Positions 1-21,182 of a DNA stretch of 21,182 bases are shown piece after piece. How positions within the stretch are numbered: the first letter of the stretch is position 1; each line of letters opens with the position of its first letter. Source of the DNA: a virus (lineage: Duplodnaviria; Heunggongvirae; Uroviricota; Caudoviricetes). The translations under genes and the position numbers were made by a program. Under the pieces are notes generated by a model, which saw nothing but the letters and a program-made list of their open reading frames with translations, had not been told where the DNA came from and searched no databases. The stretch lies in IMG/VR virus record IMGVR_UViG_2734482544_000002; one strand, 5' to 3'.

Positions 1-3000
1 CGTCATACGCTATACCGTTAAAAATAATGGGCGGAATAATAATCTGGCGGTCAAAGTTATGATCATCGCTGATGGTGACTGTAACCGTACCGTCTGGTGT
101 TTCCGTGTTACCCCACGTACCGACTTTTTTCGGGAAGGCTTTTGATACAGCTTTAACGAAATCCCCTCTGACCTGGGTCGCCTCCAGCATGCCCTTAATC
201 GTACAGTTCTGGTTAATCGTGACATTGTTGAGCGTTCCTGAGTTCGCATTCACACTACCACTGATATCCGCATTTTTAGCGGTCAGCTTTCCGTCTGATG
301 TCAGGGAAAATACCGGAGGACTGCCACCGCTGGTAATGGCGGGGGCTGTCAGGCGCTTCAGGAACACGTCGTTCATGAATATCTGGTTGCCCTGCGCCAC
401 AAACATCGGCGTTTCATTCCCGTTTGCCGGGTCAATAAACGCGATACGATTGGCGGCAACCAGAAACTGGCTCAGCTTGCCTTCCTCCGTGTCCTCCATG
501 CTGAGGCCAATACCCGCGACATAATGTTTGCCGTCTTTGGTCTGCTCAATTTTGACGCCCCACATCGCATTCCATTTATCGTTAGCGTCCTTCCACTCTT
601 TCGAAAACTCATCCAGTCTGCTGGCGTTATCCTCCGTCAGATCAACTTTTTCCAGCAGCTCTTTACCGAGATGGGATTCGGTTATCTTGCCTTTGAAAAA
701 ATCCAGGTAACCTTCCGCATCATCGCTCGCCCGACCGACGGCCTCCACGAATGCCGATTTGCCAACGGTGTTCACACTGCGGATATAAAAGTAATAATCA
801 TGGCCCGGTTTGATATTGATACTGGCGGCTATCCAGTACAGCCCCGCGCCAAGGTAGCGGGCTGTGGTTTCAACCTGCCTGATATCGGTAATCCGCGTTT
901 CCGAGAACCAGAACTCAAACTGTACCGTCGGATCATAAACCGCAAGATGCGGCGTGGCAGTTATCTGAAAATAGCCCGGCGTCAGCTCAATCCGCGACGG
1001 TGCTACCGGTGCGGCAATCCTGAACGATACCGACGCCGGATCGCCCTGCTGTCCCCAGGCATTTACCGCCCGGACTGTCAGCGTGTACCGTCCCAGCGCC
1101 AGTTGCGTGAAGCGGTATGTGGTTTCCGTCGTCCGGGCCGTGCTGACCAGCCGCTCACTGCCGTCATCCGCTGCCACGGTCAGGCGAAGCATAAAGCTCA
1201 CCCCCTTCACCACCTTCGGCGTGTCCCAGCGCGCCAGCACCTGATATTCCCCGCTGTCTGCGGTGACTTCGGCAGTCAGGTGCTGCACCGCTGGCGGCGT
1301 GACACCATTCACCGTGCCGCTCTGGTCGCCGTCAAAGTGCGCCCCGTTATCCACGATGGCTTCTTTTTCCGGTACATGCTGCACGGCAGTGATGGCATAC
1401 GTGCCGTCATCGTTCTCACGGATACTCACACAGCGGAACAGGCGCTGGCGCAACGTCGGCAGCTTCAGCCCCCACACGCTGTATTCAGCAACGCCGTCAG
1501 GAACACGGCTCACTTTCACCTTCACGCCGTCGGTGACGGACTGAACCTCCACGCTGACCGGATTGCCACTTCCGTCAACCAGGCTTATCAGCATGGTACC
1601 GGAGGATGGCAGCGTGATTTCACGGTCGAGCGTCAGCGTCCGGGTCTGGCTGTTTACCGCCAGCACGCGCCCGCCGATGCTGATACCCGCATAGTCATCA
1701 TCACAGATTTCAATGACATCGCCCGGCACATGGCGAAGCCCTTCTGCGCCCACGCTGAAGTCCACGGTCTGCGTTTCCAGCAGTTCTGTTTTAATCAGCC
1801 ACAGCCCGGCGCGGTGTGCCTGCCCCCGNNNNNNNNNNNNNNNNNNNNNNNNNNNNNNNNNNNNNNNNNNNNNNNNNNNNNNNNNNNNNNNNNNNNNNNN
1901 NNNNNNNNNNNNNNNNNNNNNNNNNNNNNNNNNNNNNNNNNNNNNNNNNNNNNNNNNNNNNNNNNNNNNNNNNNNNNNNNNNNNNNNNNNNNNNNNNNNN
2001 NNNNNNNNNNNNNNNNNNNNNNNNNNNNNNNNNNNNNNNNNNNNNNNNNNNNNNNNNNNNNNNNNNNNNNNNNNNNNNNNNNNNNNNNNNNNNNNNNNNN
2101 NNNNNNNNNNNNNACAGCGCATCGCCGAGCAGAAATCACTGAGCACATCCCACGCCTTGCGCTGTGTGGTCAGGTACGCATTACAGGTGATGCGCGGCTC
2201 CGTGCCGCCAAAGCCGTCCGGCACTGACTGGTCGCAGTACTGGCCGATGACATACAGCGCCCATTTGTCCACATCCGCCGCACCAAGACGTTTCCCCATG
2301 CCGTAGCGCGGGTGGGTCAGCATATCCCACAGACACCAGGCCATGTTGTTGCTGTATGCTGGTTTTAACGTTCCGTCCCAGATACCGCTGTATTGTCGCG
2401 TCTGCGGGTTATAGTTCGACGGCACCTGCAGAATGCGCCCGCGAAGATGATAATTACGACTCACCTGCTGGCTGCCGAACTGCTCCGAGTCCACCTGTAC
2501 GCCGACCAGTGCAGTGTTCGGGTAGCACTGTTTCACATCGATGATTTCGGTGTATGACGACCAGAGCGTTTTGTTCTGCAGCTGGTCTGTGGTGCTGTCC
2601 GGTGTCATCCTGCGNNNNNNNNNNNNNNNNNNNNNNNNNNNNNNNNNNNNNNNNNNNNNNNNNNNNNNNNNNNNNNNNNNNNNNNNNNNNNNNNNNNNNN
2701 NNNNNNNNNNNNNNNNNNNNNNNNNNNNNNNNNNNNNNNNNNNNNNNNNNNNNNNNNNNNNNNNNNNNNNNNNNNNNNNNNNNNNNNNNNNNNNNNNNNN
2801 NNNNNNNNNNNNNNNNNNNNNNNNNNNNNNNNNNNNNNNNNNNNNNNNNNNNNNNNNNNNNNNNACCGTCAGGAACACGGCTCACTTTTACCTTCACGCC
2901 GTCGGTGACGGACTGGACCTCCACGCTGACCGGATTCCCCTGCCCGTCAACCAGGCTTATCAGCGTGGTGCCGGAGGATGGCAGCGTGATTTCACGGTCG

Positions 3001-4520
3001 AGCGTCAGCGTCCGGGTCTGGCTGTTCACCGCCAGCACGCGCCCGCCGGTGCGGATACCGGCATAGTCATCATCGCAGATTTCAATGACATCGCCCGGTA
3101 CATGACGAAGCCCTTCAGCACCCACGCTGAAATCCACGGTCTGCGTCTCCAGCAGTTCCGTTTTAATCAGCCACAGCCCGGCGCGGTGTGCCTGCCCCCG
3201 GCTGGTACAGCCAAAGGCATCCATCTTCGTGACGTTACGACCGTAACGGACAATGGCCTGCGTATCCTCCACAAGCTCTGTCGCCGTCTCCCAGCCGTTA
3301 TCCGGGTCAATCCAGTTCACCTCAACGGCATTATGGCGGTCTTTCAGGGCGCTGAAACTGTAGCGGAACGGCGCGCCATCATCCGGCATCACCACATTAC
3401 TGCGGTTATAGGCCCACACCTTATCCGACTGTCGGTCCTGCACGAACGTCAGCGTCTGCCCGTTCCATACCGGCATACAGCGCATCGCCGAGCAGAAATC
3501 ACTGAGCACATCCCACGCCTTGCGCTGTGTGGTCAGCCAGGCATTACAGGTGATGCGCGGCTCCGTGCTGCCAAAGCCGTCCGGCACCGACTGGTCACAG
3601 TACTGGCCGATGACATACAGCGCCCATTTATCCACATCTGCCGCACCAAGACGTTTCCCCATGCCATAGCGCGGATGGGTCAGCATATCCCACAGACACC
3701 AGGCCATGTTGTTGCTGTATGCCGGTTTTAACGTTCCGTCCCAGATACCGCTGTATTGCCGCGTCTGCGGATTATAGTTCGACGGCACCTGCAGAATGCG
3801 CCCGCGAAGATGATAATTACGGCTCACCTGCTGGCTGCCGAACTGCTCCGAATCCACCTGTACGCCGACCAGTGCCGTGTTCGGGTAGCACTGTTTCACA
3901 TCGATGATTTCGGTGTATGACGACCAGAGCGTTTTGTTCTGCAGCTGGTCTGTGGTGCTGTCCGGCGTCATTCTGCGCATCCGGATATTAAACGGGCGCG
4001 GCGGCAGGTTATCCACCACCACCGAGGCCAGATACTGCGAGGTGGTTTTGCCCTTAATGGTGATGTCTTTTTCCGTCACCCAGCCACCGTTACGCTGTAT
4101 CTGAACCAGCAGGCGGACTTCCGACGGATTCCTGTCTCCCTTTGAGGTGGTTTCCACCAGTGCCTGTACACCGAAGGTAAAGCGCAGACGGTCGATGTTT
4201 GCCGACGTGATGGTCCGGGTGATCGGCGTGTCATATTTCACTTCCGTACCCAGCACCGTCTCGGAGCCGGAGGATTCAAATCCCTCCGGCGGTGACTGCT
4301 CCTGCTCACCTGCCCGGAACACCACCGTGACGCCGGAGATGTTGGTATTCCCCTCACTGTCCAGCACCGGCGTACTGTTCAGCAGCACGCTTTTTAATCC
4401 ATCCACCGGACCTTCAACCGGCCCTTCGCTGATGGCATCGATCACACTCAGCAGCTGCGTGGACTTCAGGTTGTCCTTCGCTTCGCGCGGGGTATGCCCC
4501 TTACTGCTGCCTTTACCCAT
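1..4520 (-). CDS. J: Tail tip / host-specificity protein J (central tail fibre). Partial: start codon at 4520, 3' end beyond the window start. Interrupted by two N-runs and an apparent diverged duplication.
   Basis: Track ORF 2454..4520(-) begins [44 protein letters not shown]. My own minus-strand translation of 1..1500 reads in one frame without stops (…[61 protein letters not shown]…[21 protein letters not shown]), i.e. the fibronectin-III-rich C-terminal half of a lambda-J-type protein. Gene sits downstream of I, as in lambda. Confidence 0.9.
1494..2614. repeat. Copy A of a ~1.1 kb J-internal segment (contains gap 1829..2113), diverged direct repeat of 2866..3977
   Basis: 1494..1828 aligns with 2866..3200 (offset 1372) and 2114..2614 aligns with 3477..3977 (offset 1363), with scattered substitutions (e.g. 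ctttcaccttcacgcc vs cttttaccttcacgcc; cagcatggtaccgga vs cagcgtggtgccgga). Confidence 0.85.
1829..2113. other. Assembly gap (285 N)
   Basis: Run of n in the sequence; the equivalent interval in the second copy (3201..3476) is 276 bp, so the gap length is an estimate. Confidence 0.99.
2615..2864. other. Assembly gap (250 N)
   Basis: Run of n in the sequence. Confidence 0.99.
2866..3977. repeat. Copy B of the J-internal segment, contiguous with the J N-terminal region
   Basis: See copy A; copy B is uninterrupted and in frame with the J start at 4520. Confidence 0.85.
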
Positions 4521-4580
4521 TCGTCATGCTCCATAAACGATAAAACCGCCCGGAGGCGATTTCACATAAAACATTTTGCA

Positions 4581-5252
4581 TCAGCGACCAATCACCACAA
4601 CCTGACCACCGTCCCCTTCGTCTGCCGTGCTGATCTCCTGAGATACCACACGTGACCCCACGCGCATTTCACCATACAGAACAGGCATAACATTGCCCTG
4701 GGCAACCATGTTATCCAGTGAGGAGAAATAGGTGTTCTGCTTACCGTTATCCGTTGTCTGTGTGCGGGGAGTTCTGGCTTTCGGTGCCAGCATCTGAGCC
4801 ACACCGCCGAGCACCATACTGGCACCGAGAGAAAACAGAATGCCGGTCATACCACCGGCACCAATGGCAGCCCCCCATGCTGCAAGGGTGGCTCCGGCGG
4901 TAAAGAATGATCCGGCAATGGCGGCTGCTCCCAGGACAATCTGGAATACACCACCTGACTTGGCCCCGGCGACTCTGGGAACAATATGAATCACAGCGCC
5001 GTCAGGCAGAGCCTCATGTAACTGTGCCGTTAATCCGGACGTGCTAACATCCTGCCCGGCAATACGCACCTGATACCAGCCGTCGCTCAGCTTCTGACGA
5101 AACGCAGGGAGCTGTGTGGCCATCGCCCGGATGGCTTCGGCACCCGTTTTCACACGAAGGTCGATGCGGCGGCCAAATCGTTGCAAATCCCCGTAAAGGC
5201 AGATGCGTGCCATGCCCGGTGACGCCAGAGGGAGTGTGTGCGTCGCTGCCAT
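4581..5252 (-). CDS. I: Tail assembly protein I
   Basis: 223-aa ORF, the same length as lambda gpI; overlaps the K 3' end by 103 nt as in lambda; glycine/alanine-rich C-terminal hydrophobic stretch; position between K and J. Confidence 0.88.
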   Translation of the reverse strand: MAATHTLPLASPGMARICLYGDLQRFGRRIDLRVKTGAEAIRAMATQLPAFRQKLSDGWYQVRIAGQDVSTSGLTAQLHEALPDGAVIHIVPRVAGAKSGGVFQIVLGAAAIAGSFFTAGATLAAWGAAIGAGGMTGILFSLGASMVLGGVAQMLAPKARTPRTQTTDNGKQNTYFSSLDNMVAQGNVMPVLYGEMRVGSRVVSQEISTADEGDGGQVVVIGR

Positions 5253-5893
5253 TTGTCGGTATACCTCTCTCGTTTGCTCAGTTGTTCAGGAATATGGTGC
5301 AGCAGCTCGCCGTCACCACAGTAAATGGCGGCATGATTCGGCACCGATGAACCAAAACAGCACAGCAGCACATCGCCCGGCTGCGCCGCTGACAACGGCA
5401 CCTGATACAGCCCTGTGGCCTCCAGATTATCCAGATAGAGATTCTGACCGTGACGCCACCAGTCATCCTCACGATGAAAATCCGGCATCTCAATCCCCGC
5501 CAGATGGTAAGCATCCCGGAACAGCGTGTAACAGTCCGTCACCCCGTGCTCAAAGCGCCGCCCGGTAAGATGTGGCACACAGCGGAACTTGTGAATCGCC
5601 CCCCGGCAGACCAGCCACCACGGCAAATCACTCTGCACCTGCAGCCGCCGGTCGGCCTCACTCAGCCAGGGCAGACCACCGGGGTGGCTGTGGACCAGTG
5701 CCACAATCTCACCCTGCATCTCTGCCTGCAGCCAGTCTTCCGGCGACATACGGAAATACGCCTCCGGCTCACCGGAGATATTCACGCAGGGGAAATATCT
5801 TTCCCCCTCCGGCGTTCTTACCACGAAGCCGCACGACTCCGCTGGAGCACATCGCCGGGCGTGCGCCAGAATCGCTGATTCTGTCTCTGTCAT
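5150..5893 (-). CDS. K: Tail tip assembly protein K (MPN/JAMM plus NlpC/P60 domains). Long form 247 aa; the lambda-annotated 199-aa form would start at 5746.
   Basis: JAMM-like HSHPGGLPWLSEAD (HxHx7SxxD) and downstream Cys/His (GVTDCYTL…NHAAIY) typical of NlpC/P60. Start at 5893 is 6 nt after the L stop; the internal Met (…YFRMSPEDW…) gives the 199-aa form. Confidence 0.85.
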   Translation of the reverse strand: MTETESAILAHARRCAPAESCGFVVRTPEGERYFPCVNISGEPEAYFRMSPEDWLQAEMQGEIVALVHSHPGGLPWLSEADRRLQVQSDLPWWLVCRGAIHKFRCVPHLTGRRFEHGVTDCYTLFRDAYHLAGIEMPDFHREDDWWRHGQNLYLDNLEATGLYQVPLSAAQPGDVLLCCFGSSVPNHAAIYCGDGELLHHIPEQLSKRERYTDKWQRRTHSLWRHRAWHASAFTGICNDLAAASTFV

Positions 5894-5898
5894 GGGAT

Positions 5899-6597
5899 TT
5901 ACTGCGAAAGTTTGTTAATGGAAAGGAAGCCGCCAAAGTTGCCGACGTTATTGCGAAACTTACAGCCACTCAGGCATTTGCTGCATTTATCCTTCGTGAT
6001 GTCGGACGTTGGCTGGTCATATTCATCCGCGACCGCCGGACCGTGATAACCGCACTCATCGCCGCGATAGGTCCAGGTGCAGGTGTTGGCCAGCATGATA
6101 CGTCCCGGAAAAACAGCGCCATCTGTTTCCGTCGGCGTGGACAGTACAAAAGAGGCACTCACCGCGCTCAGTTCGCTGCACTGCTCAATGCGCCAGCGGC
6201 TGATCACCTCCTGCTCCGGATCGGCGTCACTGTTTCCGTTGACGAAGTTCACCGCATCCAGAAAACGGGCGTAAACCTTACGCCGGACCACCGTTCCGCC
6301 GACCAGACTCTGTAGATCTTCCGCCATCCCGGTGACCATACCGTACAGGTTAGAAACCATCAGCGTGGGGCGCGTACTGGTGCCTTTGCCATTCAGTTCA
6401 AAACCACTCCCCTGAATGGGATACGGCTGATACTGTCGCCCCTGCCAGGTGACCGGCTCACCTTTTTCGTTCTGCTCATTACAGAAAAAATAACGTTCTC
6501 CACCGACCTCTGTCAGATCGATTTCCCAGAGCACCACGCTGGCCGACTGCTCCGCACGGGTGCATTCATTCAGTGTTTCCTGCCGGATATCCTGCAT
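5899..6597 (-). CDS. L: Tail tip assembly protein L
   Basis: 232-aa ORF, the same length as lambda gpL; start codon overlaps the M stop by 1 nt; cysteine-rich C-terminus (CSKCLSGCKFRNN) consistent with the Fe-S cluster motif of gpL. Confidence 0.88.
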   Translation of the reverse strand: MQDIRQETLNECTRAEQSASVVLWEIDLTEVGGERYFFCNEQNEKGEPVTWQGRQYQPYPIQGSGFELNGKGTSTRPTLMVSNLYGMVTGMAEDLQSLVGGTVVRRKVYARFLDAVNFVNGNSDADPEQEVISRWRIEQCSELSAVSASFVLSTPTETDGAVFPGRIMLANTCTWTYRGDECGYHGPAVADEYDQPTSDITKDKCSKCLSGCKFRNNVGNFGGFLSINKLSQ

Positions 6598-6926
6598 CAG
6601 TTCACCACCTGTTCAAACTCTGCGCTGAACTCAACACGCAGCATACTGACCCGCGACGACCATTTTGCGCAGGTCACCTTTATCTGCCGCCACTCATAAG
6701 GCGGCGTCCACAGAAAGGCTTTCCAGCCCCCGTGCTCTTCCAGAAACGACTCCAGTACCATGGCCTCCTCACGGGGGACAGAAAGCGTCACGCTGTACGT
6801 TTTCAGGTTGGCATTCAGCCCGGCAGGCGCTCGCTGGGAATAGCCATCACCAAAGCGCACCTTTCTTACAGAAGGGGCCGAAGCCACATCCATACCGGGT
6901 TTCACTTTCCAGCGGAAGGTTTTCAT
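6597..6926 (-). CDS. M: Tail tip assembly protein M
   Basis: 109-aa ORF, the same length as lambda gpM; ATGA overlap with the H stop; position between H and L. Confidence 0.88.
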   Translation of the reverse strand: MKTFRWKVKPGMDVASAPSVRKVRFGDGYSQRAPAGLNANLKTYSVTLSVPREEAMVLESFLEEHGGWKAFLWTPPYEWRQIKVTCAKWSSRVSMLRVEFSAEFEQVVN

Positions 6927-9484
6927 CGTCCACCTCCGGAGAACAGGCCACCATCACGCATCTGTGTCTGAATTTCATCACGGGCACCCTTGCGGGCCAT
7001 GTCATACACGGCCTTCATCATCTGTGGACCTGGCAGACCATTCGTACCGTCGTTCTGAATCACCACGTGATTGTTCTGATTAAAATTAATGCCTTCAGCC
7101 CGCCGCATCTGCGCCGGACTTCCGGCACCGCCCACATAACCACCTTCCGCATAGCCGCGCATCAGCCGGTAGAGATTCCCCACGCCAATCCGGCTGGTTG
7201 CCTCCTTCGTGAAGACAAATTCACCACGGTGAACAATCCCCGCTGGCTCATATTTGCCGCCGGTTCCCGTAAATCCCCCGGTTGCAAAATGGAATTTCAC
7301 CGCAGCGGCCTGAATGGCTGTACCACCTGACGCGGATGCGCCGCCACCAACAGCCCCGCCAATGGCGCTGCCGATACTCCCGACAATCCCCACCATTGCC
7401 TGCTTAAGCAGAATTTCTGTCATCATGGACAGCACGGAGCGGGTGAAGCTGCGCCAGTTCTGTTCACTGCCGGTCAGCATCGCCGCCATATTCTGTGCAA
7501 TACCATCAAAGGTCTGCGTGGCTGCACTTTTAACCTGTGACATACTGTCCGTGGCGCTCTCTTCCCACTCACTCCAGCCGGACTTCAGGCCTGCCATCCA
7601 GCTCCCGCGAAGCTGGTCTTCAGCCGCCCAGGTCTTTTTCTGCTCTGACATGACGTTATTCAGCGCCAGAGGATTATCGCCATACTGTTCCTTCAGGCGC
7701 TGTTCCGTGGCTTCCCGCGCTGCCTGCCGGTCAGTCAGCCCCCGGTTTTTCGCATCAATGGCTGCCCGTTTTGCCCGTTGCTGCTGTGCGAATTTATCCG
7801 CCTGCTGCGCCAGCGCATTCAGGTGCTCCTGATACGTAACCTTGTCACCAAGTGCAGCCAGCTGGCGTTTGTACTCCAGCGTCTCGTCTTTATGCGCCAG
7901 CAGGGATTTCTCCTGTGCGGACAGCTGGCGACGTTGTGCCGCCTCCTCCAGTACCGCGAACTGACTTTCTGCCTTCCACAAATCCCGGCGCTGCTGGCTG
8001 ATTTTCTCATTCGCTCCGGCATGCTTCTCCAGCGTCCGGAGTTCTGCCTGAAGCGTCAGCAGGGCCGCATGAGCACTGTCTTCCTGACGATCGCCCGCAT
8101 ACACCTTCACGCCGGACTGTTTCGGCTTTTTCAGCGTCGCTTCATAATCCTTTTTCGCCGCCGCCATCAGCGTGTTGTAATCTGCCTGCAGGATTTTTCC
8201 GTCTTTCAGTGCCTTGTTCAGTTCTTCCTGACGGGCGGTATATTTCTCCAGCGGCGTCTGCAGCCGTTCGTAAGCCTTCTGCGCCTCTTCGGTATATTTC
8301 AGCCGTGACGCTTCGGTATCGCTCTGCTGCTGCGCATTTTTGTCCTGTTGACGCTGTTGATCTACCCTCTTTTGGGCTGCATCCCGCTCCAGGCGTTTTT
8401 TTTCACGATCATCCCAGTAACGCGCCCGTGCTTCATCGTTAACGAAATAATCATCCTTGCGCAGATTCCAGATGTCGTCTGCTTTCTTAAACGCAGCCTC
8501 TGCCTTAATCAGCATCTCCTGCGCGGTATCAGGACGACCAATATCCAGCACCGCATCCCACATGGATTTGAATGCACGTGCAGTCCTGTCTGCCCAGGTC
8601 TCCAGCGTGCCCATGTTCTCTTTCAGGCGGCGGGTCTGGTCATCAAACCCTTTCGTTGCGGCCTCGTTCGCCGCCTGCAATGCCCCGGCTTCATCGCCGG
8701 AACGCTGCAACTGAGCAACATACGCAATCTGCTCCGCCGTCACGTTATGGAACTGGCGTGCCATCGCCGTCAGCCCCGACGTCGGGTCTGTGGTCAGCTT
8801 CCCGAAGGCTTCAGCGACCTTGTCCACCTCCACGCCGGATGCATAGGAGAAACGCGCCACACTCTGGCTGATGGACGCAATCTGAGCCTCACCGCTTACC
8901 CCCGCCTTAACCAGTGCGCTGAGTGACTCGCTGGTCTGGTTAAACGTCAGCCCTGCCGCCTGCCCGGCTCTGGACAGGACCAGCATACGATCTGCCGTCA
9001 GTCCCGCCTGATTACCGGAAAGGACCAGCGTTTTGTTGAAATCGGACAGGGTTGAGTTGCCCTGATACCAGGCATACGCCAGCGCACCGGTCGCCACCGC
9101 CAGCGAGGTGGCCCCCACCATCGGCAGGGTGATCGCGCCGGCAAGCCCCCTGAACATGGGGATCATCCCGCCGAAGGAGTCCTTAACCTGACCACCCTGT
9201 TGCAGCAGGATCAGCCAGGGATTCTGCCCCCCTGCAAGCTGCGTGGCCACGTCGGTGAACTGTGCAGGCAGCATACGCATGGCGGCTTTATACTGCCCGA
9301 CGGAAATCCCCGCTTTCTGTGCAGCCAGCGCCTGTCGGCTCAGCGACTGTTCAACGACTGCCGCTGTTTTTTTCGCATCACTTTCCGTACCGGAAAAATG
9401 ACGCCTGACTCTGGCCATCTGCTCGTCAAATCTGGCCGCATCCAGACTCAAATCAACGACCAGATCGCCTACCGGTTCAGCCAT
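6923..9484 (-). CDS. H: Tail tape measure protein H
   Basis: 853-aa ORF, the same length as lambda gpH; long Ala/Gln/Glu/Lys-rich coiled-coil-like central region; glycine-rich hydrophobic segment near the C-terminus; position after G/T. Confidence 0.92.
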   Translation of the reverse strand: MAEPVGDLVVDLSLDAARFDEQMARVRRHFSGTESDAKKTAAVVEQSLSRQALAAQKAGISVGQYKAAMRMLPAQFTDVATQLAGGQNPWLILLQQGGQVKDSFGGMIPMFRGLAGAITLPMVGATSLAVATGALAYAWYQGNSTLSDFNKTLVLSGNQAGLTADRMLVLSRAGQAAGLTFNQTSESLSALVKAGVSGEAQIASISQSVARFSYASGVEVDKVAEAFGKLTTDPTSGLTAMARQFHNVTAEQIAYVAQLQRSGDEAGALQAANEAATKGFDDQTRRLKENMGTLETWADRTARAFKSMWDAVLDIGRPDTAQEMLIKAEAAFKKADDIWNLRKDDYFVNDEARARYWDDREKKRLERDAAQKRVDQQRQQDKNAQQQSDTEASRLKYTEEAQKAYERLQTPLEKYTARQEELNKALKDGKILQADYNTLMAAAKKDYEATLKKPKQSGVKVYAGDRQEDSAHAALLTLQAELRTLEKHAGANEKISQQRRDLWKAESQFAVLEEAAQRRQLSAQEKSLLAHKDETLEYKRQLAALGDKVTYQEHLNALAQQADKFAQQQRAKRAAIDAKNRGLTDRQAAREATEQRLKEQYGDNPLALNNVMSEQKKTWAAEDQLRGSWMAGLKSGWSEWEESATDSMSQVKSAATQTFDGIAQNMAAMLTGSEQNWRSFTRSVLSMMTEILLKQAMVGIVGSIGSAIGGAVGGGASASGGTAIQAAAVKFHFATGGFTGTGGKYEPAGIVHRGEFVFTKEATSRIGVGNLYRLMRGYAEGGYVGGAGSPAQMRRAEGINFNQNNHVVIQNDGTNGLPGPQMMKAVYDMARKGARDEIQTQMRDGGLFSGGGR

Positions 9485-9911
9485 ACCGGACTCCTCCTGC
9501 GATCCCTTCTGATACTGTCATCAGCATTACGTCATCCTCCGTCATGTCCGCCACATCCGGGGAAGCGGGGATAACTTCATTCCCGTCCGGGCCAAAGCGG
9601 ACACCTCCGGCAAGCCCTGCCGCTTTCTGCATCAGCACATCATCTTCAGGCTCTTCGTCAGCCTCGCGCCGGTTCAGCAGACTGAAATCCAGCGGATGCA
9701 TCTCCGGATCGCTGAAAAACAGGCTGAGCACGGTGTACGTCAGCCCGGAAAAGTGCATATCCAGCAGAACATCATGAAAATAATGGGTACTGTAAAAGCG
9801 GTGCCAGTCGGCATACTCCGTGGATGACATCCCGGCAAGCATGGCGCGCCAGTCGGGTCGCCCCATCTCACGCGCCAGTTTCAGGGCAAAACTCAGCTCA
9901 CCGTCGAACAC
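9477..9911 (-). CDS. T: T reading frame, expressed only as the G-T fusion by -1 programmed frameshift (tail assembly chaperone)
   Basis: 144-aa ORF overlapping the G 3' end in the -1 frame; slippery GGGAAAG lies at the G/T overlap; overlaps the H start by 8 nt. Confidence 0.85.
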   Translation of the reverse strand: MFDGELSFALKLAREMGRPDWRAMLAGMSSTEYADWHRFYSTHYFHDVLLDMHFSGLTYTVLSLFFSDPEMHPLDFSLLNRREADEEPEDDVLMQKAAGLAGGVRFGPDGNEVIPASPDVADMTEDDVMLMTVSEGIAGGVRYG

Positions 9912-10315
9912 TTTCCCGCAGAAACAGGCTCTGCAGGCCCGGCGTCCTCTGCCTGTTCAGGAGCATCATTCACCACAAACTCATACATACCGGACAGCCG
10001 GTACACCACGTTTTCAGCATGAGAAATTGCCTCTGTGGGCCAGGTGGTAAGCACTTCCTGCTCAATCTGTTTAACGGCTTCATTCATGGACGGCATCTGC
10101 GTCTTCTTCGGATGGTTATGCCACAGGGACATCGCAACCACAAAAGCGCCGGTTCTGATGGCGTCTTCCACAGTAAACTTCCGGTTGCTGTCTGACTCCG
10201 CCTGTTCTGCCTGCCGTTTCATCAGGTCGAGATGCTCAATACGCTGCAGGGCTGACAGTTCAGAAAGCGTGACGGTCACACCGTTATGTTCAAATGATTC
10301 GGTTTTCAGGAACAT
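9893..10315 (-). CDS. G: Tail assembly chaperone G
   Basis: 140-aa ORF, the same length as lambda gpG; C-terminus …SAGKCSTVS* encoded across the GGGAAAG heptamer. Confidence 0.88.
   Translation of the reverse strand: MFLKTESFEHNGVTVTLSELSALQRIEHLDLMKRQAEQAESDSNRKFTVEDAIRTGAFVVAMSLWHNHPKKTQMPSMNEAVKQIEQEVLTTWPTEAISHAENVVYRLSGMYEFVVNDAPEQAEDAGPAEPVSAGKCSTVS
9911..9917 (-). promoter_or_regulatory. Programmed -1 ribosomal frameshift slippery heptamer (G GGA AAG) for G-T
   Basis: Plus strand ctttccc at 9911..9917 is GGGAAAG on the minus strand, 18 nt before the G stop; the -1 frame continues into the T ORF. Confidence 0.8.
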
Positions 10316-10330
10316 CGCTGACTCTCCGGA

Positions 10331-11071
10331 TTAACTGGCGGTGACGTTGATTTCTGCAACCGCAGCAAACTCACCATTACCAGATACGACCGGAATGTTG
10401 ACCTTGCCTGCAGCAACACCTTTCACGGTGATGGTCATACCACTGACCGACACGGTGGCTTTTGTTTTATCCGCAGACACCGCACGGAAGCTCTTGTCGG
10501 TTGCGCCATCCGGCTGGAATGCCACGGTCAGCGTGGTGCTCTGCCCTTTCACTACGGAAGCACTGGCGGGTGTCACCGTCATGCCGGTCGTCGCCGTCAC
10601 CGTGCTGCGATCTTCTGCCATCGACGGACGTCCCACATTGGTGACCTTCACCGTGCGGGTAATCACCTCCTTCGCCGTCACCGCCTTACCGATACTGCTG
10701 ACCCAGCCACGGAACACATCGACCGTGCCGTTCGGGAAGCGGATTTTATAGGCACGGGTATCACCTTCATTAAACCACGCCAGCAGCGCCTGCTGCCCCT
10801 GCTCTCCGGGCATCCACGCCAGCGTGAAGCTGGTATCTCCGGCAGATTTCTGCCCCTGCCCGGTCGCAGTCCAGTCTGCATCTTCATCATCGAGATAGCT
10901 GTCGTCATAGGACTCAGCGGTCAGTTCGCCGGGCGTCAGGTCTTTAACTTTTGCCAGACGCGACCAGTCAACGTCTGAAAGCGGGTTCGCATAAGGGTCA
11001 CCGCTCCCCTTATAAACCCACAGGGTGGTCCCGGCACCTTTCACCGGCATTGTAGGATTTGGTACAGGCAT
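10331..11071 (-). CDS. V: Major tail tube protein V, with C-terminal Ig-like (Big_2) domain
   Basis: Track ORF is 256 aa from 11101; the start at Met11 ([22 protein letters not shown]…) gives 246 aa as in lambda V and lies 7 nt after the U stop. C-terminal …[18 protein letters not shown]. Confidence 0.9.
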
Positions 11072-11078
11072 AGCGTCC

Positions 11079-11474
11079 TCACATTTCATAGATAATGACA
11101 TAAGTCAGATCGGCTGAACTCCACAGGCCCGCATCATCGTCGCGCCGGTAGTCATAGCCGCTGGCCACCATACTGGTGATCAAATCTGACAGTGCCGGGA
11201 TATCGCTCATCACAGGATAAATCCGGGACTCCATCCACGAATCCAGCTCTGAATCCGGCACCTGAGCAGGCAGGAAAACTTCAATATGCAGCTCCGCCTG
11301 CCAGGTATCGCTGTCCAGCTCTTCGCCCGTGTATTCAGCGCCGGTGAGATAAACGGCAATTGCCGGAAAATCTTCCTCATCAAAAACAGCGGGGCGACCA
11401 TCAAAAAGCGTCGCCCCGGTGTCATGCTTCTCCAGTGCATCCAGTACGGCTGCACGGAGTTCAGTATGTTTCAT
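11079..11474 (-). CDS. U: Tail terminator protein U
   Basis: 131-aa ORF, the same length as lambda gpU; ATGA overlap with Z; position between Z and V. Confidence 0.88.
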
Positions 11475-12049
11475 CGCTTTATTACCATTCTCAGTTGATG
11501 CTGCAGCGCATAGCCCAGCTCTTTCGGAAGACGTTCACGCCGTATCCGTTCAATATTCTGTTTAAACGCCGTGGTCAGCGGCACCGCCATCGGGATTTTC
11601 ACCACATCAATGGGGTAACGGTTTTTCCCGGCCACACGCTGCATAACATGCCACCGGCCGTTTTTCAGTTGCTGAATAAACGCGCCGGGAATACGACGGT
11701 TACCCACCACAAGCACGCTGCCGCCACCTTTCAGGGATGAACGCTGCCCCTTTTTATGACGCCTGCGGCGGGACAGGACAACCCGCGCATTACCCAGCTT
11801 GATTACGGGCAAATCCCCCCGGTTAACTTTGATTCTGGCCTGCGGATTTTTGACCGTGGCCCTTTTCAGCCTGGCCCTTTCCTTTACCAGTTTCCGGCGT
11901 ACCTTTGTCTCACGGGCAACCTGTGACGCAGACTGCGATATCGCGGATGAAGCAACGCGGTTAATGGCCATTGCGGCGGCACCGGGCACCGCCGTTTTGC
12001 TGATACGGCTGAGGTTTTCAACGGCCTGCTCAAGACCTTTTATGGCCAT
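11471..12049 (-). CDS. Z: Tail completion protein Z
   Basis: 192-aa ORF, the same length as lambda gpZ; position between FII and U. Confidence 0.85.
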   Translation of the reverse strand: MAIKGLEQAVENLSRISKTAVPGAAAMAINRVASSAISQSASQVARETKVRRKLVKERARLKRATVKNPQARIKVNRGDLPVIKLGNARVVLSRRRRHKKGQRSSLKGGGSVLVVGNRRIPGAFIQQLKNGRWHVMQRVAGKNRYPIDVVKIPMAVPLTTAFKQNIERIRRERLPKELGYALQHQLRMVIKR

Positions 12050-12060
12050 ACATCCCCCTT

Positions 12061-12414
12061 TCAGCGGCGACGGTTAACGGCAGGCGGTACGCCCCGTCCA
12101 AGCCAGAGATGACAACTTCCGCCATCATCCGGCGAAACCCGATCTACCCAGAAATTTTCCTCACCGATGGTCAGCGTGTCTCCACGCCGCAGCTGCCGCA
12201 CCTCATCAGTCCGGACAAACAGGGACGGGCTGGAGCCTTCAACGCGCACGCCCTGTCCGGCATAGCTGATATTTTCAGGGTCATCAAAAACACCACGTAT
12301 CACCGCACCTGACTGCTCACCGGATGTCATGGTGGCTGACGTTCCCATGTACCCGCGTATCGTTTCATCGGCGCGGGCAATGGCAGCATCGAACAGGTTA
12401 TCGAAATCAGCCAC
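12061..12414 (-). CDS. FII: Head-tail connector (head completion) protein FII
   Basis: 117-aa ORF, the same length as lambda gpFII; position after FI. Confidence 0.85.
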   Translation of the reverse strand: MADFDNLFDAAIARADETIRGYMGTSATMTSGEQSGAVIRGVFDDPENISYAGQGVRVEGSSPSLFVRTDEVRQLRRGDTLTIGEENFWVDRVSPDDGGSCHLWLGRGVPPAVNRRR

Positions 12415-15608: not shown

Positions 15609-19289
<3,681 letters not shown>

Positions 19290-19315
<26 letters not shown>

Positions 19316-19835
19316 TCAGCAACCCCGGTATCAGTTCATCCAGCGCGGCTGCTTTGTTCATGGCTTTGATGATATCCCGTTTCAGGAAATCAACATGTCG
19401 GTTTTCCAGTTCCGGAAAACGCCGCTGCACCGACAGGGGGATCCCGTCGAGAATACTGGCAATTTCACCTGCGATCCGCGACAGCACGAAAGTACAGAAT
19501 GCGGTTTCCACCACTTCAGCGGAGTCTCTGGCATTTTTCAGCTCCTGTGCGTCGGCCTGCGCACGCGTAAGTCGATGGCGTTCGTACTCAATAGTCCCTG
19601 GCTGGAGATCTGTCTCGCTGGCCTGCCGCAGTTCTTCAACTTCCCGGCGCAGCTTTTCGTTCTCAATTTCAGCATCCCTTTCGGCATACCATCTTATAAC
19701 GGCGGCAGAGTCATAAAGCACCTCATTACCCTTGCCACCGCCTCGCAGAACGGGCATTCCCTGTTCCTGCCAGTTCTGAATGGTACGGATACTCGCACCG
19801 AAAATGTCAGCCAGCTGCTTTTTGTTGACTTCCAT
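19290..19835 (-). CDS. Nu1: Terminase small subunit Nu1 (winged-HTH cosB-binding)
   Basis: 181 aa, MEVNKKQLADIFGASIRTIQNWQEQGMPVLRGGGKGNEVLYDSAAVI…; first gene after cos. Confidence 0.93.
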
Positions 19836-20012
19836 TGTTCATTCCACGGACAAAAACAGAGAAAGGAAACGACAGAGGCCAAAAAGCCCGTTTTCAGCAC
19901 CTGTCGTTTCCTTTCTTTTCAGGGGGTGTTTTAAATAAAAACATTAGGTTACGGCGAAGAAGAACGGAAACGCCTTAAACCGGAAAATTGTCATAAATAG
20001 CGAAAACCCGCG
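19836..20012 (-). promoter_or_regulatory. cosB region (Nu1 R-sites and IHF-binding region) between cosN and the Nu1 start
   Basis: Reverse complement reads …CGCGGGTTTTCGCTATTTATGACAATTTTCCGGTTTAAGGCGTTTCCGTTCTTCTTCG…, closely resembling the lambda left-end cosB sequence as I recall it. Confidence 0.7.
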
Positions 20013-20024
20013 CGCCTTCCGCCC
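20013..20024 (-). other. Putative cosN core (position of the 12-nt cohesive end), uncut in the prophage
   Basis: Minus strand reads CGACAGGTTACG|GGGCGGAAGGCG|CGCGGGTTTTCGC. Flanks match lambda cos, but the 12-mer differs from canonical GGGCGGCGACCT in its last 6 nt. Confidence 0.55.
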
Positions 20025-20223
20025 CGTAACCTGTCGGATCGCCGGAAAGGACCCGCAAAATGATAATAATTATCATCTACATGTCACAACGTGCATCTAC
20101 GCCATCAAACCACGTCAAATAATCAATTATGACGCAGGTATCGTATTAATTGATCTGCATCAACTTAACGTAAAAACAACTTCAGACAATACAAATCAGC
20201 GACACTGAATACAGGGCAACCTC

Positions 20224-20457
20224 ATGTCAACGAAGAACAGAACCCGCAGAACAACAACCCGCAACATCCGCTTTCCTAACCAAATGATTGAACAAATTAA
20301 CATCGCTCTTGTTCAAAAAGGGTCCGGGAATTTCTCAGCCTGGGTCATTGAAGCCTGCCGCCGGAGACTGTGCTCAGAAAAAAGAGTTTCGCCTGAAGCA
20401 AACAAAGAAAAGAGTGACATTACTGAATTGCTCAGAAAACAGGTTAGACCAGATTGA
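20224..20457 (+). CDS. Small ribbon-helix-helix-like DNA-binding protein (77 aa), antisense to the late operon
   Basis: MSTKNRTRRTTTRNIRFPNQMIEQINIALVQKGSGNFSAWVIEACRRRL…: basic N-terminal tail, a short beta-strand (RNIRFP), helix, G-x-G/S turn, second helix, the Arc/MetJ/CopG pattern. Possibly the DUF3950 (YlcI/YnfO-like) family of lambdoid prophages; family assignment is from memory. Confidence 0.6.
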   Translation: MSTKNRTRRTTTRNIRFPNQMIEQINIALVQKGSGNFSAWVIEACRRRLCSEKRVSPEANKEKSDITELLRKQVRPD

Positions 20458-20499
20458 AGCAATTTAGATAATCGTGCAGACTACGCCCCCTCATATCAC

Positions 20500-20925
20500 A
20501 TGGAAGGTACTACAATGGCTCAGGTTGCCATTTTTAAACAAATATTCGATAAAGTGCGAAATAATTTAAACTATCACTGGTTTTATTCTGAACTAAAACG
20601 TCACAATGTCTCACATTACATTTACTATTTAGCCACAGAGAATATTCATCTTGTTCTTGAAAACGATAATACGGTTTTAATAAAAGGACAGGGTAAGGTT
20701 GTAAATGTAAGATTTTCAAAAAATAAATGCCTTATAGAAGCCACCTTAAAAGGATTCAAATCAGGAGAGTTATCATTTTACGAATACAGGAAAAATCTTG
20801 CTACAGCAGGGGTTTTCAGATGGATTACAAATATCCACGAAAACAAAAGGTATTACTATACCTTTGATAATTCATTACTCTTTACTGAGAACATACAGAA
20901 CACTACACAAATATTTCCGCACTAA
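20500..20925 (+). CDS. AT-rich hypothetical protein (141 aa), possibly DUF1398-like 'phage envelope protein' family
   Basis: Clean ORF in a markedly AT-rich stretch (Asn/Lys/Tyr/Ile-rich product: …[22 protein letters not shown]…[22 protein letters not shown]…); same strand and 42 nt downstream of the RHH ORF; followed by a hairpin. No recognisable catalytic motif. Confidence 0.55.
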
Positions 20926-20933
20926 ATCATAAC

Positions 20934-20962
20934 GTCCGGTTTCTTCCGTGCCAGAACCGGAC
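20934..20962 (+). terminator. Stem-loop (8-bp stem gtccggtt/aaccggac, 13-nt loop) 9 nt after the stop of ORF 20500..20925
   Basis: Perfect inverted repeat in the sequence. No downstream T-run, so not a canonical intrinsic terminator; it could be a processing or regulatory hairpin. Confidence 0.3.
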
Positions 20963-21182
20963 TCGCTGGCATGATGAAATATGTGTACCCGGTAACCCCG
21001 GTGTGCATCGTTTTTGATTATTCCCGCACACTCGCGCAGAAGGAGTTCCCCGTCGGGCTACGGTCTCTGTTAATACGGGAATACGGCGACGATTGGATTT
21101 GCCCCTATATTTCCAGACATCTGTTATCACTTAACCCATTACAAGCCCGCTGCCGCAGATATTCCCGTGGCGAGCGATAACC

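Follow-up and report, generated by a model that had tools for sequence, protein, structure and literature searches.

A 21,182-nucleotide stretch of Caudoviricetes DNA (IMG/VR record IMGVR_UViG_2734482544_000002; hereafter the window) bears, at positions 20100-20962 beside the cos site, two small open reading frames (ORFs) on the plus strand. By homology the two are ynfO and ydfO in the Qin-type form of the lambda right end, an arrangement that is conserved, extremely common, and already known and annotated. A first-pass annotation drawn from the DNA letters had likened the two genes to a toxin-antitoxin or abortive-infection pair, and had offered as an alternative the conserved DUF3950 and DUF1398 lambdoid ORFs of unknown function. 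Matches to Pfam, NCBIfam and the solved protein structure 2HH8 establish that the alternative was exactly right. On balance we lean towards two independent accessory genes, of which the first may specify a small DNA-binding-type regulator and the second an AT-rich cargo protein under host regulation. The genes are:

20224-20457, plus strand: ORF1, ynfO type, 77 aa, YlcI/YnfO family (DUF3950).
20515-20925, plus strand: ORF2, ydfO type, DUF1398, 136 aa (141 aa if the start is at 20500).

ORF1 scored 72.8 bits against the Pfam model DUF3950 (cut-off 25) and 35.2 bits against the NCBIfam model YlcI_YnfO_N (cut-off 30), and matched phrog_949 with an E-value of 6e-33. ORF2 scored 147 bits against Pfam DUF1398 (cut-off 22) across profile positions 1-119 of 119, and aligned with E. 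coli YdfO, the structure of which was solved by nuclear magnetic resonance (NMR; PDB 2HH8), with an E-value of 1.4e-69 over residues 1-140. The fold of ORF2 is that of this solved DUF1398 member. The Pfam search that had been recommended at first pass thus recovered both anticipated families, and the ORFs read there at 20224-20457 (77 aa) and 20500-20925 (141 aa) are real genes as judged by their Pfam and NCBIfam matches. A chromosomal copy that is 99.9% identical is annotated in RefSeq as encoding a 'YlcI/YnfO family protein' and a 'DUF1398 domain-containing protein'. The start of ORF2 is more likely to be the ATG at 20515 than position 20500 because a GGAAGG Shine-Dalgarno sequence lies at 20502-20507, 7 nt 5' of the former, with none before the latter, and near-identical genes are annotated as 411 nt (136 aa) in ev099 and RefSeq.

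The ynfO and ydfO genes of the Qin prophage of E. coli K-12 have the same order, spacing and strand as those in the window and are located beside nohA, a homologue of Nu1. The ynfO DNA is 96-99% identical between the two elements and the 51 aligned nucleotides of the spacer are 100% identical, whereas the ydfO alleles share ~82% DNA identity. The downstream cargo also differs, with gnsB and cold-shock genes in Qin and a KilA-N region in the closest relatives of the window. DNA resembling 20100-20962 was detected in 3802 of 5426 complete E. coli genomes (~70%) at up to 12 places per genome, and at least 80% of the segment was present in one place in 2662 of these genomes. Among 80 IMG/VR loci with the ydfO allele of the window, ynfO was positioned 290-291 nt upstream in 79 and ybcW was present in none; Nu1 also was found, within the stretch examined, at 77 of the 79 ynfO-ydfO loci.

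Three gene arrangements were distinguished. The ynfO and ydfO genes are adjacent in Qin and in the window; ylcI is followed by ybcW, on the opposite strand, and by ybcV in DLP12 and lambda; and ylcI stands alone with iss or bor directly after it in the third arrangement. The first-pass annotation had advised that conservation of the pair be compared with that of the single genes across lambdoid prophages, and the genes proved also to occur apart. As ylcI can be found alone, as the two genes are split in lambda and DLP12, and as DUF1398 is not among the neighbour families listed for distant DUF3950 genes (see below), ORF1 and ORF2 are, on comparative gene order, independent modules and not an obligate pair. 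The lambda right end (the DUF3950 ORF, lambdap79 and lambdap78) and the ylcI-ybcW-ybcV cluster of DLP12 comprise homologous genes at the same place relative to cos. Unlike the window, however, they include ~560 extra bp with the opposite-strand gene ybcW/lambdap79 (207 nt in lambda), and the C-terminal tail of their DUF3950 protein differs from that of ORF1. By comparison with lambda (L001, 3120-3775), ybcW/lambdap79 is absent at positions 20458-20514 of the window. A recent preprint reports that lambdap79 sets off the Vulcan NADase defence, and that mutants which escaped Vulcan had lost lambdap79, apparently by recombination with Qin (bioRxiv 10.64898/2026.09.04.749371).

Pairwise identities among relatives place a mosaic boundary at approximately codon 54 of ORF1: the A and Nu1 genes, cos and the N-terminal part of ORF1 are 94-100% identical, versus 82-85% for ydfO. 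The GC content is 0.31-0.32 over 20500-20899, which spans most of ORF2, compared with 0.51-0.59 in the late genes. The much lower GC of the downstream ORF had been recognized at first pass and taken to suggest separate acquisition, which is reasonable in view of the mosaic boundary and the greater divergence of ydfO. As a separate observation, near-identical lambda DNA was encountered in assemblies of unrelated taxa such as Kitasatospora, Cohnella, Pedobacter, Streptomyces and Enterococcus, often as contigs of ~3.5 kb or 48.5 kb (loci L013, L016-L024, L026-L036, L038-L046 and others). This DNA is almost certainly control or spike-in contamination of the assemblies, and many frameshifted 'proteins' in protein databases look like the same effect.

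In ORF1 a basic arm at the N-terminus precedes a core of two helices (residues 19-52), and a variable tail forms the C-terminus. Among E. coli homologues the first 50 residues are nearly invariant and the tail is variable. The isoelectric point is 10.9 for the whole protein and 11.5 for residues 1-52. The DUF3950 family is small, with 108 clusters at 50% identity among 1.84 billion representatives, and its members typically are 51-70 aa in length with the pattern (K/R)-x-I-R-F-P-x-x-(L/M)-I-x-x-I, a loop, and N-F-S-A-W-V-x-(E/D)-A-C. The first-pass annotation had discerned the signature of a ribbon-helix-helix (RHH) protein in this ORF. An AlphaFold2 model in which the core has a predicted local distance difference test score of ~85 positions helices at residues 19-32 and 34-52, preceded by an extended arm, and is compatible with that proposal. 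ORF1 resembles RHH regulators and antitoxins, including Arc, CopG, ParD and MazE of Mycobacterium tuberculosis, in size, in the basic N-terminal arm, and in the succession of strand (I-R-F-P), helix, G-x-x-N-F-S and helix; there is also a weak structural likeness, and in hhalign the strand and helix A fall in the register of Arc. Alignment of DUF3950 by hhalign with a small hand-made RHH alignment placed NIRFPNQMIEQINI on NLRWPREVLDLVRK of Arc, which is the expected register, with a probability of just 1%. The best fold matches of the ORF1 model were the ParD and MazE antitoxins, which were weak and below significance. The DUF3950 family profile retrieved no RHH protein from PDB sequences, and 20 diverse family members matched no RHH family in Pfam at E-values up to 10. 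ORF1 differs from RHH regulators and antitoxins in that no match in sequence, profile or fold reached significance and in that it is without a cognate toxin. Thus, the arm and helices of the model agree with the original suggestion and family membership was not borne out by significant similarity: an RHH-like structure for ORF1 is plausible and unproven, and was not refuted by modelling.

Distant DUF3950 genes in other genera, mostly of the Enterobacterales, were inspected at 39 loci for the two nearest ORFs on each side. The most frequent neighbour families were AlpA (10), integrase (6), AntA (5), DUF4222 (4) and primase domains (3), and the 25 listed as commonest included neither DUF1398 nor a terminase family. 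A universal association of DUF3950 with terminase genes was rejected, as the association was seen just in E. coli lambdoid prophages and in one prophage with HNH and Terminase_2 genes. The upstream neighbour was divergent at 31 of the 39 loci, and at 24 the DUF3950 gene was the lone plus-strand gene between minus-strand neighbours. A lone divergent gene amid opposing neighbours is the layout of many mobile-element repressors. Like its satellite relatives, ORF1 is a lone counter-oriented gene that diverges from the neighbouring operon. The genes at loci L049-L089 (Salmonella, Serratia, Pectobacterium, Brenneria, Xenorhabdus, Tatumella and others) mostly were lone and counter-oriented in islands with integrase, AlpA or primase genes, and in L068 a tRNA gene is situated ~100 nt past a 420-aa minus-strand ORF of integrase size. 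Features common to the upstream regions of the distant genes are a GC-rich stem-loop with a T run after it, repeats of the AGGTGCACA type, and CACGTCAA, which also occurs at 20111-20118 in the window. The CACGTCAA motif and the repeats were not accepted as a functional shared operator because most of the loci are related satellites, in which common descent and function are inseparable.

Two relatives of ORF1, P0299 and P0332, have DUF3950 fused to the N-terminal part of Terminase_2, with both domains above the Pfam cut-offs. This part of Terminase_2 we take to be the DNA-binding domain of the small terminase. The P0332 gene, which joins DUF3950 to the N-terminal domain of the small terminase TerS, is at 6001-6363 in L006 (E. 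coli CP027459.1). Positions 1-12363 of this locus form an island resembling a phage-inducible chromosomal island, with an integrase, an AlpA-like gene, two DUF3950 genes, a D5-type primase, TerS and a capsid-like gene, seemingly inserted in a prophage gene read by eye as terL. A YlcI gene also lies beside the HNH and TerS genes of the resident prophage itself, and both domains of P0332 are closer to the YlcI and TerS of this prophage than to the copies that belong to the island.

The secondary structure of ORF2 comprises two helices and three strands followed by one helix and three strands, a pattern that, with the repeated Y-Y-x-x-x-D/N-N-(T/S)-L-L segments, points to an internal duplication. 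Neither a signal peptide nor a hydrophobic segment was detected in ORF2, the maximum Kyte-Doolittle value over 19 residues being 0.39. A fold search with YdfO gave no informative neighbour, and family searches with ORF2 returned no catalytic family, in accord with the original remark that the pair has no visible catalytic motif. A sub-threshold match to HEPN_AbiA_CTD (E 0.014, 15.8 bits; cut-off 27) was dismissed, the fold being alpha+beta and not all-helical as in HEPN proteins; the H26 and H39 residues that are candidates for the HEPN R-x4-6-H motif vary among close homologues. ORF1 had no match in PADLOC-DB 2.0 and ORF2 nothing significant, with just Csx23 at E 0.025 (12.6 bits). Homologues of ORF2 are labelled 'putative envelope protein' in lambda records, 'head protein' in phrog_413 and in phage records of RefSeq, and also 'YbcV'. 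The envelope and head labels were treated as annotation artefacts because the protein of 136 aa is without a signal peptide or hydrophobic segment and its homologue was soluble in NMR studies.

Two sites at the 3' end of ORF1 and beyond it may govern the transcription of ORF2:

20438-20454, strand not given: PdhR-box-like site AACAGGTTAGACCAGAT, by sequence likeness, inside the 3' end of ORF1.
20445-20472, plus strand: promoter-like site TAGACC-16-GATAAT, just 5' of ORF2.

The -35 element of the promoter-like site overlaps the PdhR-box-like site. Compared with the Qin site AAcaGGTcagACCAgaT, which is located between ynfO and ydfO and was recovered for PdhR by genomic SELEX (systematic evolution of ligands by exponential enrichment) (PMC7660256), the PdhR-box-like site has a difference of 1 nt, which falls in the unspecified spacer. 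The mRNA levels of ybcV and ybcW were reduced ~10-fold in a pdhR mutant (PMC7660256). In K-12, an ionic liquid gave 116-fold induction of ydfO (PMC4077768), the gene responded to over-expression of DicC (bioRxiv 10.1101/2024.09.21.614188), and lambdap78, the lambda homologue of ORF2, was non-essential by CRISPR interference (PMC10695390). The papers found report no phenotype for YdfO: the sole functional claim, that YdfO over-expression raises oxidative-stress resistance (PMC4077768), was rejected as a mix-up of gene names, as the source cited for it (Wang et al. 2010, PMC3105296) deals with yfdO, a gene of prophage CPS-53, and at no point names ydfO.

The hairpin that the first-pass annotation had placed after the 141-aa ORF is present, and its stem is conserved:

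20934-20962, plus strand: stem-loop with an 8-bp stem GTCCGGTT, a 13-nt loop and AACCGGAC, 9 nt past the ORF2 stop codon.

The folding energy of the stem-loop is ordinary (z -1.3), with 17 of 200 shuffled sequences folding as well. The stem is kept and the loop is freely variable in four sequence variants; as read from the aligned sequences, the Qin hairpin has one compensatory change of T:A to C:G and that of lambda has a 9-bp stem with one bulge. The element probably is a real RNA or DNA structure, most simply one at the 3' end of an mRNA. The stem of an intrinsic (Rho-independent) terminator is present and the T run is absent: no U-tract follows on either strand, a terminator scan made no call, and the stem-loop is not a canonical terminator. 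A scan of 19800-21182 against Rfam identified no known RNA family, the sole matches being meaningless microRNA ones on the cosB inverted repeat. A third plus-strand ORF (20971-21180, 69 aa) follows the hairpin, and a version of 53-54 aa is annotated in some phage records. Its sole PHROG matches were weak and fell on the C-termini of larger proteins. The stretch similar to PhiR49_1 stops within it at ~21093, and the ORF probably is not a conserved gene.

The remainder of the window has the layout of a lambda-type late region in reversed orientation, and in its first 17 kb it matches phage 434 and lambda, in their head and tail genes, at ~97%. The late genes closest to the module are:

17390-19315, minus strand: terminase A, late operon.
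19290-19835, minus strand: terminase small subunit Nu1 (Pfam Phage_Nu1, E 2.4e-101), divergent from ORF1 across cos.

As had been perceived from the outset, ORF1 and ORF2 are the sole credible plus-strand genes that oppose the late operon in the window. Long plus-strand ORFs at 72-2227, which are antisense to gene J, yielded no match in a family search. Masked runs of N at 1829-2113 (285 nt) and 2615-2864 (250 nt) both fall within the tail-tip gene J, and account for the apparent frameshift in J and the long spurious antisense ORFs. The lysis cassette itself is missing from the window. As KilA-N, Rz, lysozyme and holin genes come after the pair in near-identical prophages, the predicted location of the module between cos and the lysis cassette is confirmed.

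The features of cos and of the DNA between cos and ORF1 are:

20013-20024, strand not given: 12-nt cohesive-end segment of cosN, from base-for-base alignment of the flanks with the two ends of lambda.
20060-20076, strand not given: perfect palindrome ATGATAAT-A-ATTATCAT, a candidate operator between cos and ORF1.
20087-20060, minus strand: promoter-like site GTGACA-16-TATCAT, with 10/12 matches, pointing to cos and Nu1.
20122-20154, strand not given: 13-nt inverted repeat ATCAATTATGACG / CGTATTAATTGAT, 70-100 nt 5' of ORF1, a candidate operator.

The cosN of the window is CGCCTTCCGCCC (cohesive end GGGCGGAAGGCG), compared with AGGTCGCCGCCC in lambda, so that 5 of 12 bases differ, despite ~98% identity of Nu1 and A to those of lambda. 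PhiR46_1 has the same variant. Across the phage collection, a 71-nt cosN query was matched over its full length at no more than 95.8%, a value shared by PhiR46_1 and YDC107_1. The lambda form is found in prophage OkiPb01701, which otherwise is near-identical to the window, and in phage PhiR49_1. From these comparisons the cosN of the window is a rare variant. The palindrome overlaps the promoter-like site that faces Nu1, and we know of no promoter described in lambda at the equivalent position. The 216 nt from cosN to the first codons of ORF1 (20025-20240) have a mean column identity of 98% across lambda, Qin, ev099 and a prophage with ylcI and iss. A special constraint on this block at the DNA level was rejected: its 95-99% identity is unexceptional because Nu1 and A, at 98-100%, match it.

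Overall, we suggest that ORF1 encodes a DNA-binding-type regulator of 50-70 aa in which a short strand (NIRFP) and two helices follow a basic N-terminal arm, and which probably forms an RHH-like dimer. This reading of ORF1 is advanced because of the basic isoelectric point, the modelled core, the Terminase_2 fusions and the divergent neighbours at 31 of 39 distant loci. YnfO most likely would bind the repeats in the DNA between cos and ORF1, and regulate its own or divergent transcription. YdfO would be separately acquired, AT-rich cargo of the 'moron' type, a soluble cytoplasmic alpha+beta protein with an internal duplication which, as a guess, binds a protein or small ligand and does not perform catalysis. 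Its gene would have a separate promoter, located in the 3' end of ORF1 and subject to host control, consistent with the PdhR box and with stress-inducibility in K-12, and the stem-loop past the stop codon probably marks or stabilizes the 3' end of the mRNA. Late transcripts from pR' would run antisense through both genes, which, by analogy with lambda biology, implies that they should be expressed mainly in the lysogen, like bor. The lambda homologue of ydfO, lambdap78, can be dispensed with in lytic growth. Several points weigh against this interpretation. DNA binding by YnfO is inferred from its anatomy, as is expression in lysogens of the phage in question from lambda biology; a scan of the plus strand upstream of ORF1 revealed no sigma-70-like promoter; and a passage of one study by transposon-directed insertion-site sequencing describes ydfO as under-inserted and calls it 'essential' (PMC5821084).

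It is unlikely, although conceivable, that YdfO alone is a lysogenic-conversion effector in conflict between phage and host, in superinfection exclusion, defence or counter-defence. The gene lies in the cargo slot, from lysis genes to cos, in which bor and iss are also placed, is AT-rich and opposed to late transcription, is multicopy with up to 12 places per genome, and has in lambdap79 a neighbour in the slot that is sensed by the Vulcan defence (bioRxiv 10.64898/2026.09.04.749371). Like YdfO, the lambdoid 'moron' genes (bor/iss and lom) are non-essential, run opposite to the late transcript and sit between lysis genes and cos. However, bor and iss specify lipoproteins with a known serum-resistance phenotype whereas YdfO is cytoplasmic and has no known phenotype. 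The absence both of a PADLOC match and of a phenotype in the papers found, once the confusion with yfdO is removed, argues against an effector role.

A role for YnfO/YlcI at cos, modulating terminase expression or packaging, for example by repressing the promoter-like site at 20087-20060 that leads into Nu1-A in the lysogen, appears decidedly improbable. The gene is directly beside cos and divergent from Nu1 in every lambda-type E. coli phage and prophage examined, a YlcI gene is likewise placed in the prophage with a different packaging module (HNH and Terminase_2), and a perfect palindrome overlaps the promoter-like site. The two fusions to the N-terminal part of the small terminase, and the closer similarity of the satellite fusion halves to the YlcI and TerS of the resident prophage, also would fit such a role, but fusion may merely join two DNA-binding modules. 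Moreover, the 39 loci of other genera list AlpA, integrase, AntA and primase and no terminase family, conservation of the DNA near cos is not above that of Nu1 and A, and to our knowledge lambda terminase requires no such cos-proximal factor in vitro.

A toxin-antitoxin or abortive-infection pair, as raised at first pass, would have in YnfO an RHH antitoxin or repressor the C-terminal tail of which neutralizes a YdfO toxin. This reading fits the order of a small RHH-like gene followed by a small effector-like gene, and would accommodate the weak fold matches to ParD and MazE, the covariation of the ORF1 tail with the downstream content, the AT-richness of ydfO and the marginal HEPN_AbiA_CTD match. 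It is nonetheless a most improbable explanation: neither Pfam nor PADLOC offered a toxin or defence model or a recognizable toxin domain in the partner, the R-x-H motifs are not conserved in a fold that is not that of HEPN, YdfO was soluble for NMR (2HH8), for which over-production in E. coli is assumed, and the genes are not inherited and transcribed as a unit, given ylcI next to iss without DUF1398, the opposite-strand gene that splits the two in lambda and DLP12, the 39 distant loci without DUF1398 among the neighbour families listed, and the promoter-like site belonging to ydfO. Also weighing against it, the passage that treats ycgX places it beside bluR, mentions DUF1398 homologues in prophages, and says nothing further (PMC3509220).

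The negative result is useful in that a module flagged as a possible toxin-antitoxin or abortive-infection system is the ordinary ynfO-ydfO pair, which is present in ~70% of complete E. coli genomes and should not be counted as a new candidate for defence. The ynfO and ydfO genes are among the commonest prophage genes without known function, and the 'head protein' and 'envelope protein' labels and the published 'oxidative-stress' role appear to be unfounded. The occurrence of DUF3950 in satellites, at times fused to a small-terminase DNA-binding domain, is a concrete and testable lead to the function of the family. As a speculative proposal with a slim chance of being correct, DUF3950 proteins may serve lambdoid helpers as small DNA-binding regulators whose function is linked to the region of cos and the small terminase. 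Satellites may have copied them, and at times joined a helper-like YlcI domain to a helper-like TerS DNA-binding domain, in order to sense, mimic or redirect packaging by the helper. If true, ynfO in the window would be the helper-side component of an interaction between phage and satellite, and not inert cargo.

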